Sequence record: ON528731
From: Shigella phage ESh21
DNA length: 64,000 bases
Strand: one strand, 5' to 3'
Made by a program: the position numbers and the translations under genes. Shown in pieces: positions 31,568 to 33,075 of this stretch (the first letter of the stretch is position 1; each line of letters opens with the position of its first letter). The notes under the pieces are model-generated. The model saw nothing but the letters and a program-made list of their open reading frames with translations. It was not told where the DNA came from and searched no databases.

Positions 31568-33075
31568 ACGTCTATACAATCTCTTTCTAGACATTTAGAG
31601 TAATAACTCTATAGCTTACTCTATAACCTCTTATCAAATCAACTTAAATATAAGCCCATAACCCGAAAGGGAAGGGCAACCATTAAAACGCTCTATAACG
31701 CTCTATAACAGCCTTATCAACCTAACTTAAGCAATCATATTAACCCACTCTAAAAATCCCTTTATAGAGCTTCCTAGAGCCTTAAAAGAATCTTATAAGG
31801 GTGTAAGCTTTATCATCTCGTTAGTCTCTTGTGAATATCTAAACAGGGCTGCAAAGTCACTTAAAAGTTACGTAAAAAGAGCTATAAAGTATCGTAAACA
31901 CTAGCCCCCTTAACATTTCTTTAACAAAATCTTAACAATCCCTACATAGTTATGCTTGTTAGCAACTTGTTAGCACCTTGTTAAATCTCTGTTAAGACTA
32001 CGTTACAACCTTGTTAGGCTCTTTGAAGTCCCTATATAAGCCCCTGTAAAGGGCTATAAAGAGCTATACAGGTAATTGGGCTATAGATACTAGTAAGAAC
32101 CTTAGAAGAGGCTACATAGAGCTATACAGGGCTTTTAAGAGGGCTGTTTAGAGAATCACTGAGAGGGATAGGGAACTATAAGAGAAGAGAAGTTGTGTTT
32201 GTAAACAATCACTGTGACCATGTTAATAAATGGTTAAACATGTTAAGAACTTAATAGACACTTGTTAATTATCTTAACAAAATAACTTTTAAATTTAACA
32301 TGTTAGGGACTTGTTAGTAATTTGTTAAACCCTTGTAAGAACTGTTAAACTCTTGTTACATCCTTGTTAGAACTGTTAAGGGATTGTTAAGAACTATGGA
32401 GACTTGTTAGAGACTTGTTAGAGTTGTAAAGAAATTGTTAATGATATTTTAAGATTTTGCAAAGGGGATGTTACAGGGCTGTTAAGGGCTACCAAGCAGA
32501 TATACACCCTTTGTAGATATTTTTCAGATACTCCCAAGAACCTAAAAAGTGACCTACCTAGTCTATTTTATAAAAATTTTATAGAACTGAATAACTATCT
32601 ATACACTATCTTCTATAAAACAGGTAATAACAGGCTTATAAGATATCTTGTTAGTAACGTGTTAGACCTTGTAGGATAAGCCTTTACAGGGAATACCTGT
32701 TTAGTGCTATATAACAGTCTATATAGAGGCTTAGTAATCCCTAGTGAACCATCTATAGAGGGTATCATCCTTAACATAGAGATTAAGATGGATATAGGGG
32801 CTTCTAAGGGGCTATGGAGAAGCTAGGAAGGTGATTGTATAGGTGTGGAAGAGGGCTTGTTAGAGAGCTTTATAGAGGGCTATTTAGAAGGTGCTATATA
32901 GTTTCACTAGATAGGGACTAAGAGGCTATATAGATACTATATAATACTATATAGAGAGTATGCTTAGATAGGTTGTTGAAGAGGGTATTGATATTTTATC
33001 ACATATCATGGTGACCAAAGATGAACGGAGTGAATCCAAATTTTATAAGAACTATAAATTTCGTAAATTTTACTC
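31568..33075. repeat. ORF-free iteron field: about 28 copies of YTTGTTAR plus a second family GCTATA(C/T)AGAG
   Basis: no ORF of 60 aa or more on either strand; TTGTTA-type motifs recur at about 10-12 bp spacing, densest 32298-32440; lies between convergent gene blocks. Confidence 0.75.

Follow-up and report, generated by a model that had tools for sequence, protein, structure and literature searches.

What is a 1.5-kb stretch without genes, crowded with short repeats, doing between two converging gene blocks of a phage genome? The stretch in question, positions 31568–33075 of a 64,000-nt sequence of Shigella phage ESh21 (record ON528731; this whole sequence is called the window below), follows a plus-strand gene block that ends at 31503 and precedes a minus-strand block whose last gene ends at 33135. 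A first-pass annotation of the same DNA described it as an ORF-free field of helically phased short repeats, seen as a sign of protein binding, and offered replication origins, partition sites, packaging sites and silencing platforms as possible functions. By comparing the locus with its relatives, we found that its central 590 bp correspond to the direct terminal repeat (DTR) of Felix O1-like phages. The locus is almost certainly a genome terminus, and since its center is the DTR, it has to be seen as a concatemer junction and not as a spacer inside the genome. We consider it probable that the junction unites the DTR, two non-coding arms and the platform on which the terminase recognizes and cuts the DNA.

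Genome ends and the direct terminal repeat

The region matches 254–273 phage records, every one of them from the Ounavirinae (Felix O1-like myoviruses), and the best matches are Shigella phage ESh22 (92%) and Citrobacter phage Moogle (85%). Judged by its sequence, the window is that of a Felix O1-like phage with Mooglevirus as the nearest genus. Four independent GenBank records of the group contain 100% identical copies of one segment at both ends, measuring 613 bp in Ro111lw, SeKF_63 and SPJ41 and 581 bp in D4. In a joint alignment, the first base of this DTR fell on 31904 and the last on 32493 for all four end-duplicated records (eight boundaries), delimiting a 590-bp homologue in ESh21 that contains 21 TGTTA and 5 TAACA sites. 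A search with 31904–32493 recovered at least 8 further records that carry the segment at position 1 or at their last base, and many public records of the group begin or stop within the region. The window contains a single DTR copy because its sequence is in the junction (collapsed) form.

The boundaries are fixed and defined by sequence, the pair of motifs that marks them lying 567–658 bp apart in 26 distinct sequences. On the left, the motif (31902–31915) consists of TA followed by GCCCCCTTAACA, and the terminus, or presumed cut, falls between the two parts, at 31903/31904. In our conservation alignment (15 genomes of three genera, identity measured to the ESh21 window), this motif is invariant, and it is still recognizable in Erwinia phage M7 and Pectobacterium phage Arno18. 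On the right, the boundary block (32448–32507) contains TAAGATTTTGCAAAGG and, further on, TGTTAAGGGCTACC, which is followed directly across the terminus at 32493/32494 by AAGCAGATATACA. The right block is near-invariant in the 15 genomes and conserved in M7 and Arno18, and no other part of the locus is conserved as deeply. Read inward from the termini, the 5′-ended strands begin with GCCCCCTTAACA on the left and with GGTAGCCCTTAACA on the right. Inverted TAGCCC–TTAACA motifs adjoin both cuts, the outermost TTAACA/TGTTAA lying 6 nt and 8 nt away from them.

That phages of this group have a DTR is already known, its length having been published and its position being implicit in the end-oriented records. 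A DTR of 613 bp was determined for Ro111lw with PhageTerm (PMC6454146), and one of 581 bp was reported for Pr103Blw (PMC8303462). For UAB_Phi87, the physical ends were mapped by Bal31 digestion and run-off sequencing, giving a DTR of 608 bp; the SpeI fragments that proved sensitive to Bal31 measured 2819 and 4322 bp, and the large terminase was placed in a Felix O1-type DTR cluster (PMC4837284). In the public UAB_Phi87 record, we found the boundary motifs 614 bp apart within a single 6.57-kb SpeI fragment. The terminal SpeI fragments predicted from them, 2751 and 4431 bp, agree with the published ones within ~100 bp.

The arrangement is also seen in phages whose sequences are otherwise hardly similar. 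Both ends of the record of Erwinia phage M7 (Kolesnikvirus) carry an exact repeat of 444 bp, in which TAACA copies lie to the left and TGTTAAG copies to the right; its right boundary has the blocks GATTTTGCAAAGG and AAGYAGATATACA. An M7-like arrangement is found in Pectobacterium phage Arno18, where it occupies a 1.4-kb gene-free gap of its own.

Many deposited genomes, among them REP10 (OQ174509), DE7, BPS17W1 and PHB11, were opened or broken at this locus at non-terminal points. Some of them have assembler overlaps here, for example 77 bp in REP10, and most lack a second copy of the repeat; the stated lengths and start points of such records are therefore not biological.

The TGTTA array, the second repeat family and the arms

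Motif counts in 31568–33075 were compared with those in 1000 dinucleotide shuffles. TGTTA occurs 24 times on the plus strand against 2.5 ± 1.5 in the shuffles (z = 14) and 9 times on the minus strand against 2.6 (z = 4.2), and elsewhere in the window there are ~2.8 copies per equal length. The longer form YTTGTTAR is found 12 times on the plus strand (0.2 in the shuffles, z = 25) and twice on the minus strand. The ~28 copies of YTTGTTAR given in the first-pass annotation are thus too many for the 8-mer as written, which totals 14, but they agree with the looser TGTTAR (22 plus 6) and with the TGTTA core (24 plus 9). Similarly, the 14 copies it placed within 32298–32440 comprise 11 exact TGTTA, the other three being degenerate or reverse copies. 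The excess over what the local base composition predicts, a point on which the annotation could have failed, is large (z of 14–25). The TGTTA array and the CTATA/TATAGAG array described below occur nowhere else in the 64 kb.

The spacings between TGTTA sites are 11, 20, 22, 31, 42 bp and so on. The 21 plus-strand sites of the DTR (31957–32480) lie on one face of the helix, with a best period of 10.4 bp and a resultant length (R) of 0.79; for the core sites at 32301–32436, R is 0.95 (P < 0.0005). The helical phasing that had been proposed in the first-pass annotation was in this way confirmed by the periodicity analysis. The DTR contains 21 of the 24 forward copies (TGTTA) and 5 of the 9 reverse ones (TAACA), and the sites form two clusters. 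In cluster A (31908–31997, with a fifth TGTTA at 32012 just beyond), TAACA sites at 31911, 31922 and 31933 face TGTTA sites at 31957, 31968, 31979 and 31990, at 11-bp spacing. As a whole, the cluster amounts to a long, imperfect inverted repeat with which the DTR begins on its left side; the polarity of the motif switches here, and the major sites thereafter are forward. It folds as a hairpin on both strands (z of −3.5 and −5.3), and the sites at 31922, 31933, 31968, 31979 and 31990 are retained in all 14 relatives. Cluster B (32221–32484), the main array, contains 16 forward sites on the plus strand with a period of 10.35 bp (R of 0.83), including the 11 sites of the one-faced core, and the majority of its sites are retained in 13 or 14 of the 14 relatives. 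Periodicity of AA/TT dinucleotides, a proxy for curvature, is strong in the left arm only (11.2 bp) and not in the DTR, and for this reason was not taken as evidence.

Conservation in the non-coding region (0.77–0.82) exceeds that at the 3′ ends of the flanking genes (0.60) and is highest in a left-arm block at 31594–31833 and at the two boundaries. Within the DTR, the TGTTA/TAACA core positions are conserved at 0.937 in comparison with 0.720 for the other positions (P = 2e-13). Seventeen of the 26 sites persist in 13 or all 14 of the relatives, and the number of sites is steady, with 19–23 forward and 2–6 reverse copies. The comparison of relatives that had been proposed for this locus therefore finds a conserved motif and a near-constant repeat number, and a DTR whose length changes in steps of ~11 bp. 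The length classes among the 26 distinct sequences are 567–570, 579–580, 590–592, 601–603, 612–614, 623–625, 633 and 658 bp, and the boundary-to-boundary length is quantized at 11.05 bp (R = 0.85, P < 0.0003, for 26 phylogenetically related sequences). A scan of IMG/VR with the 14-mer TAGCCCCCTTAACA gave mostly chance matches in unrelated contigs; the true relatives, contigs of ~84–89 kb and a few fragments also with the right-boundary motif, fed the length statistics.

Some relatives carry a 22-nt palindromic insert, AATTGGTATTGTTACCAATCCC, which is absent from the window and equals two 11-bp repeat units in length. It was found at four sites, aligned to ~31680, 32274, 32300 and 32349, and its carriers are SUSP2, L27, Ro111lw, SeKF_63, pinkbiff and heid. 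At 32190–32212, in the poorly conserved center of the DTR, the window has an extra ~21 nt (AAGTTGTGTTTGTAAACAATC) that, among the 15 genomes, it has in common with SPJ41 only.

The second repeat family had been described in the first-pass annotation by two sequences, of which GCTATAYAGAG has no exact match in the region and CTCTATAGC has one. The enrichment itself holds for the looser CTATA/TATAGAG, with 8 copies of GCTATA against 0.2 in the shuffles and 22 copies of CTATA against 5.5 (z = 7.7). The central block of this family inside the DTR (32030–32153, plus strand) consists of GGGCTATA, GCTATACAG and GGGCTGTTTAGAG repeats at 10–12-bp spacing and separates cluster A from cluster B. The family is polar: CTCTA is confined to the left arm (5 copies, none in the DTR or the right arm), and TAGAG and GCTAT are found mainly in the DTR and the right arm.

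The left arm (31568–31903) would in virion DNA be the unique sequence ahead of the right-end DTR copy. It has CTCTATA-type repeats in one orientation and a C-rich top strand (GC skew −0.27), and its conservation is 0.82, the block at 31594–31833 being ~90% conserved over three genera. The arm contains a nested hairpin, GCCC-ATAA-CCC-GAAA-GGG-AA-GGGC (31654–31677), that is invariant in 13 of the 15 genomes. In SUSP2 and Ro111lw, GCCA...TGGC constitutes a compensatory change of C:G to A:T, with a longer inner stem. The alifold z scores of this hairpin are −4.7 on the plus and −3.0 on the minus strand, and it may be a DNA cruciform, a protein site or an RNA. The right arm (32494–33075) would correspondingly be the unique sequence after the left-end DTR copy. 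Its GCTATA/TATAGAG repeats are opposite in orientation to the repeats of the left arm, its top strand is G-rich (GC skew +0.22) and its conservation is 0.78. An AT-rich stretch in this arm (87% AT, 32544–32604, the 40-mer being at 32564) lies outside the array.

The absence of any open reading frame (ORF) of 60 aa or more on either strand was correctly noted in the first-pass annotation. The longest ORF in 31568–33075 has 54 aa, and the small ones are not conserved: the five ORFs of 30–54 aa are intact only in the ESh21 window and its relative ESh22 (94% identical) and are disrupted by stops or frameshifts in 13 of the 15 aligned genomes. The position between convergent, terminated gene blocks was also recovered, with a hairpin and a U-run on each side. 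As a strict terminator scan of the region gave no hit, the flanking hairpins were assessed by folding. The hairpin closing the plus-strand block (31544–31568, plus strand; AAGCCCC-UUAAAU-GGGGCUU followed by UUUU, of the rho-independent type) has a fold energy of −25.4 kcal/mol (z of −3.7), and the one closing the minus-strand block (33080–33127, minus strand) has −21.4 kcal/mol (z of −4.2). Terminators are annotated in Moogle and Michonne at the homologous sites of both, and the claim that each block has its own terminator is thus supported by folding and by annotation but not by the strict scan.

A small palindrome, GATTCGATAGAATC (33098–33111), is located in the loop of the right terminator as part of a 20–30-nt insert. 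In relatives, palindromes of the GATTCGATAGAATC type shift to the loop of the left terminator, to the left arm or to a place just beyond the right DTR boundary, as seen in L141, L143, L001, L002, L142, L003 and the SPJ41 junction. Its behavior resembles that of a very small element that is mobile or arises repeatedly.

A proposed packaging role and its competitors

In the mechanism that we propose, replicating concatemers would contain a single DTR copy between genome units, and the terminase would cut sequence-specifically at 31903/31904 and 32493/32494. The repeat would be duplicated so that each packaged genome receives a copy at both ends, as in T7-type phages. The ~26 one-faced TGTTA sites and the inverted boundary motifs would serve as a binding platform for the small terminase or an equivalent protein. 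An oligomer bound on one face, or DNA wrapped through the ~10.4-bp spacing, could then position the large terminase at both cuts, and the conserved arms may add recognition of the pac type. The expected trans-acting cutter is the large terminase subunit encoded at 49048–50664 (plus strand), which matches PHROG 979 (E of 6.5e-232) and the Pfam domains Terminase_6N and Terminase_6C. Its upstream neighbor at a distance of 7 nt, a 68-aa ORF (48835–49041, plus strand), is by position only a candidate for the small terminase or array-binding protein. Among Moogle-, Susp- and Felixounaviruses, this ORF is conserved at 55–100% identity. Its only match is to PHROG 4397, a family of unknown function, with none in Pfam or PDB.

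A role in end recognition accounts better for the number of sites (~26) and for their location within the terminal repeat than one in replication initiation, partition or silencing. Among the functions listed in the first-pass annotation, packaging sites is the one that received support; for an origin, a partition site or a silencing platform we found nothing specific. That the TGTTA array is a platform for packaging, and thus for the terminase, rather than for some other end-related function, is a more tentative proposition, and on the sequence features at hand we would put it just short of an even chance.

Several observations weigh against the packaging reading. No small terminase could be recognized by sequence (PHROG, Pfam and PDB), and a homologue of the 68-aa ORF was not detected in the Erwinia phages, which share the motif. 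The termini of ESh21 itself are assigned by homology to end-duplicated relatives, and the closest relatives with defined ends are ~78% identical in the region. The distances of the cuts from TTAACA are asymmetric (6 nt versus 8 nt), and the boundaries of Erwinia phage M7 are offset by 2–3 nt. For UAB_Phi87, the predicted fragments differ from the published ones by 70–110 bp and reconciliation at base level failed, which is attributable to the public record (87,603 bp) being of another version than the 87,669 bp of the paper. Part of the length quantization is due to 11-bp units that slipped and to the palindromic inserts of 22 nt, in sequences that are related, and it could thus reflect a mutational mechanism as well as selection or a constraint on phase.

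The alternative that survives best is a telomere-like platform at the genome ends, where the array would not be a terminase site but would bind a protein either of the phage (early or co-injected) or of the host. The bound protein would protect the ends from RecBCD or join them, by non-covalent circularization or as an aid to concatemer formation. The array lies inside the repeat and hence at both physical ends, its 21 in-phase sites over ~520 bp suggest a long one-faced filament or wrap, and its motif is conserved across genera; the failure to identify a small terminase among PHROG, Pfam and PDB families speaks in the same direction. On the other hand, no candidate binding protein was found for this role either, and the outermost motifs stand at a near-fixed distance from both cuts, with invariant boundaries, as fits the recognition of a cleavage site. 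We regard the telomere-like platform as unlikely, although it is compatible with packaging and the two roles may coexist. A wider version, in which a subfamily-wide protein polymerizes along the whole repeat or wraps it into a "phage telomere" nucleoprotein, appears doubtful but deserves mention. Its roles would go beyond recognition of the cleavage sites and could include end synapsis, exonuclease protection or measurement of the repeat by one complex making both cuts. If true, the ends would be defined in a way that has not been described for T7-type phages.

A replication origin, with TGTTA as initiator iterons and the AT-rich 32544–32604 as the unwinding element, is an improbable explanation of the array, though it was the foremost idea of the first-pass annotation. 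Many direct repeats at helical spacing, the 87% AT 40-mer nearby and the position of the locus at a switch in strand composition (GC skew from −0.27 to ~+0.2) are what an origin could look like. However, the skew switch is accounted for by the convergent gene orientation, the region contains 0 DnaA boxes and 0 IHF consensus sites, and 26 sites with a 5–8-bp core are unlike typical iterons, which measure 17–22 bp and come in 3–9 copies. The flanking genes match PHROG families of unknown function only (six tested), with no domain in the three scanned against Pfam, and packaging explains why the array lies in an exact terminal repeat whose cut sites are invariant. The locus could nevertheless combine an origin with packaging.

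Two further candidates were rejected. The same matches of the adjacent genes (unknown-function PHROGs only for the six tested, no Pfam domain for the three scanned) led us to discard a partition site of the parS/parC type, which would be expected beside ParA/ParB-type genes and in an extrachromosomal prophage or plasmid, and the description of relatives as lytic phages (PMC8303462, PMC11737134) counts against a partition centromere. A silencing platform had no specific support.

Transcription of the left arm (31594–31833) or other parts into a structured non-coding RNA seems very improbable. The ~90% conservation of the arm, the nested GAAA-loop hairpin with one compensatory change and alifold energies below those of column shuffles would all be compatible with an RNA. 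However, an Rfam search of 30500–34000 gave no match in 31568–33075 at E < 1, sigma-70 promoter-like sites are not enriched (10 versus 6.3 ± 2.4 expected), and the terminators at both flanks point into the region. RNAalifold scores of six sub-segments were alike on both strands, and we read them as reflecting inverted repeats at the DNA level and not a strand-specific RNA. A functionless remnant, that is, a decayed gene or simple repeats made by slippage and without binding activity, is scarcely credible: while 11-bp units can grow by slippage and small palindromic inserts come and go, the region is better conserved than the neighboring genes, the motif cores are selectively conserved and the layout is kept in Erwinia and Pectobacterium phages with little other similarity, contradicting the gene remnant that the first-pass annotation had allowed for.

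The surrounding gene content is that of Felix O1-like phages. Upstream are ribonucleotide reductases, NAMPT and rIIA/rIIB, and downstream are a Ro-like RNA-binding protein, 25 tRNA genes, the large terminase, portal, protease, sheath and tape measure. The Ro60-like gene (PHROG 850) and the 25 tRNA genes that come after it occupy 42229–48614, and such a pairing was noted for phage Bas63 (bioRxiv 10.1101/2024.10.10.617714). The window (1–64000) contains a single GATC site in comparison with ~225 expected from base composition, which suggests strong avoidance of GATC-targeting restriction or of Dam-dependent processes. CGCG, CCGG, GCGC and GGCC are 4–6-fold under-represented over the same positions.

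Felix O1-like phages are widely used in Salmonella and E. coli typing, in biocontrol and in therapy, and how their DNA is recognized and cut for packaging is undescribed. Placing the ends at the base-pair level explains why public assemblies are so often opened or broken here, and it allows genomes to be oriented correctly and the repeat to be annotated. For engineering, it defines ~1.5 kb that should be kept intact in synthetic or rebooted genomes. The TGTTA array and the inverted boundary motifs are cis elements that can be tested and used in finding the DNA-recognition subunit of packaging.

Comparison with known systems

The published DTRs of Felix O1-like phages (608 bp in UAB_Phi87, 613 bp in Ro111lw and 581 bp in Pr103Blw) are at the homologous locus, and their boundaries map to 31904 and 32493. 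The papers describing them (PMC4837284, PMC6454146, PMC8303462) report only that the repeat exists and how long it is; they say nothing of the array and its phasing or of the boundary motifs and arms. In the Felix O1 genome paper, where other repeats are listed, this region goes unmentioned, and in curated records the homologous 1.5 kb is unannotated or bears automatic repeat_region features only. We found no description of a phased array in Felix O1-like phages in the literature, and the array, its phasing, the boundary motifs and the conserved arms appear to be newly described features.

Phage T5 has a large non-coding stretch, rich in repeats and palindromes, that carries an injection stop signal and is tied to the terminal repeat. 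The ESh21 locus resembles it in being a non-coding stretch with many repeats and palindromes linked to a terminal repeat. However, the T5 repeat is ~10 kb long and coding, and its signal acts in a two-step injection of the DNA, for which there is no evidence in Felix O1-like phages.

The pac hexamers of P1 (TGATCA/G), which flank the cut, the R sites of lambda cosB and pacL/pacR of SPP1 are recognition sites built of short repeats, and in pac and cos systems the bending or wrapping of the DNA is attributed to an oligomeric small terminase. The likeness to ESh21 lies in short repeat arrays beside a terminase cut site, with binding putative in the latter. While those systems are of the headful or cohesive-end type and have a single cut region with 3–7 sites, ESh21 would have many more sites, in an array bracketed by two cuts at a distance of 590 bp.

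By analogy, the closest characterized system is the concatemer junction of T7. The terminal repeat of T7 is 160 bp long and flanked by CCTAAAG arrays called SRL and SRR; in T7-type phages, each concatemer junction holds one repeat, which is duplicated as the DNA is packaged, and the terminase has defined cut sites. In both T7 and ESh21, a short, exact direct terminal repeat is situated in non-coding DNA, and a short motif recurs in it or next to it. In the T7 record, we counted 3 copies of CCTAAAG within the 160 bp of the repeat and another 12, at 13-bp spacing, directly behind it, whereas in ESh21 the main array is inside the repeat and its ~26 sites have a helical spacing of 10.4–11 bp. The repeat of the ESh21 group is also longer (~570–660 bp) and quantized in 11-bp steps, the polarity of its motif inverts near the left end, and inverted TAGCCC–TTAACA motifs are present at both boundaries. 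Finally, ESh21, a myovirus, encodes a large terminase of the T4 type (Terminase_6N/6C) and has no phage RNA polymerase promoters at the junction. The locus of ESh21 and its relatives would provide, beside T7, a second and independent example of short-motif arrays at terminal repeats.

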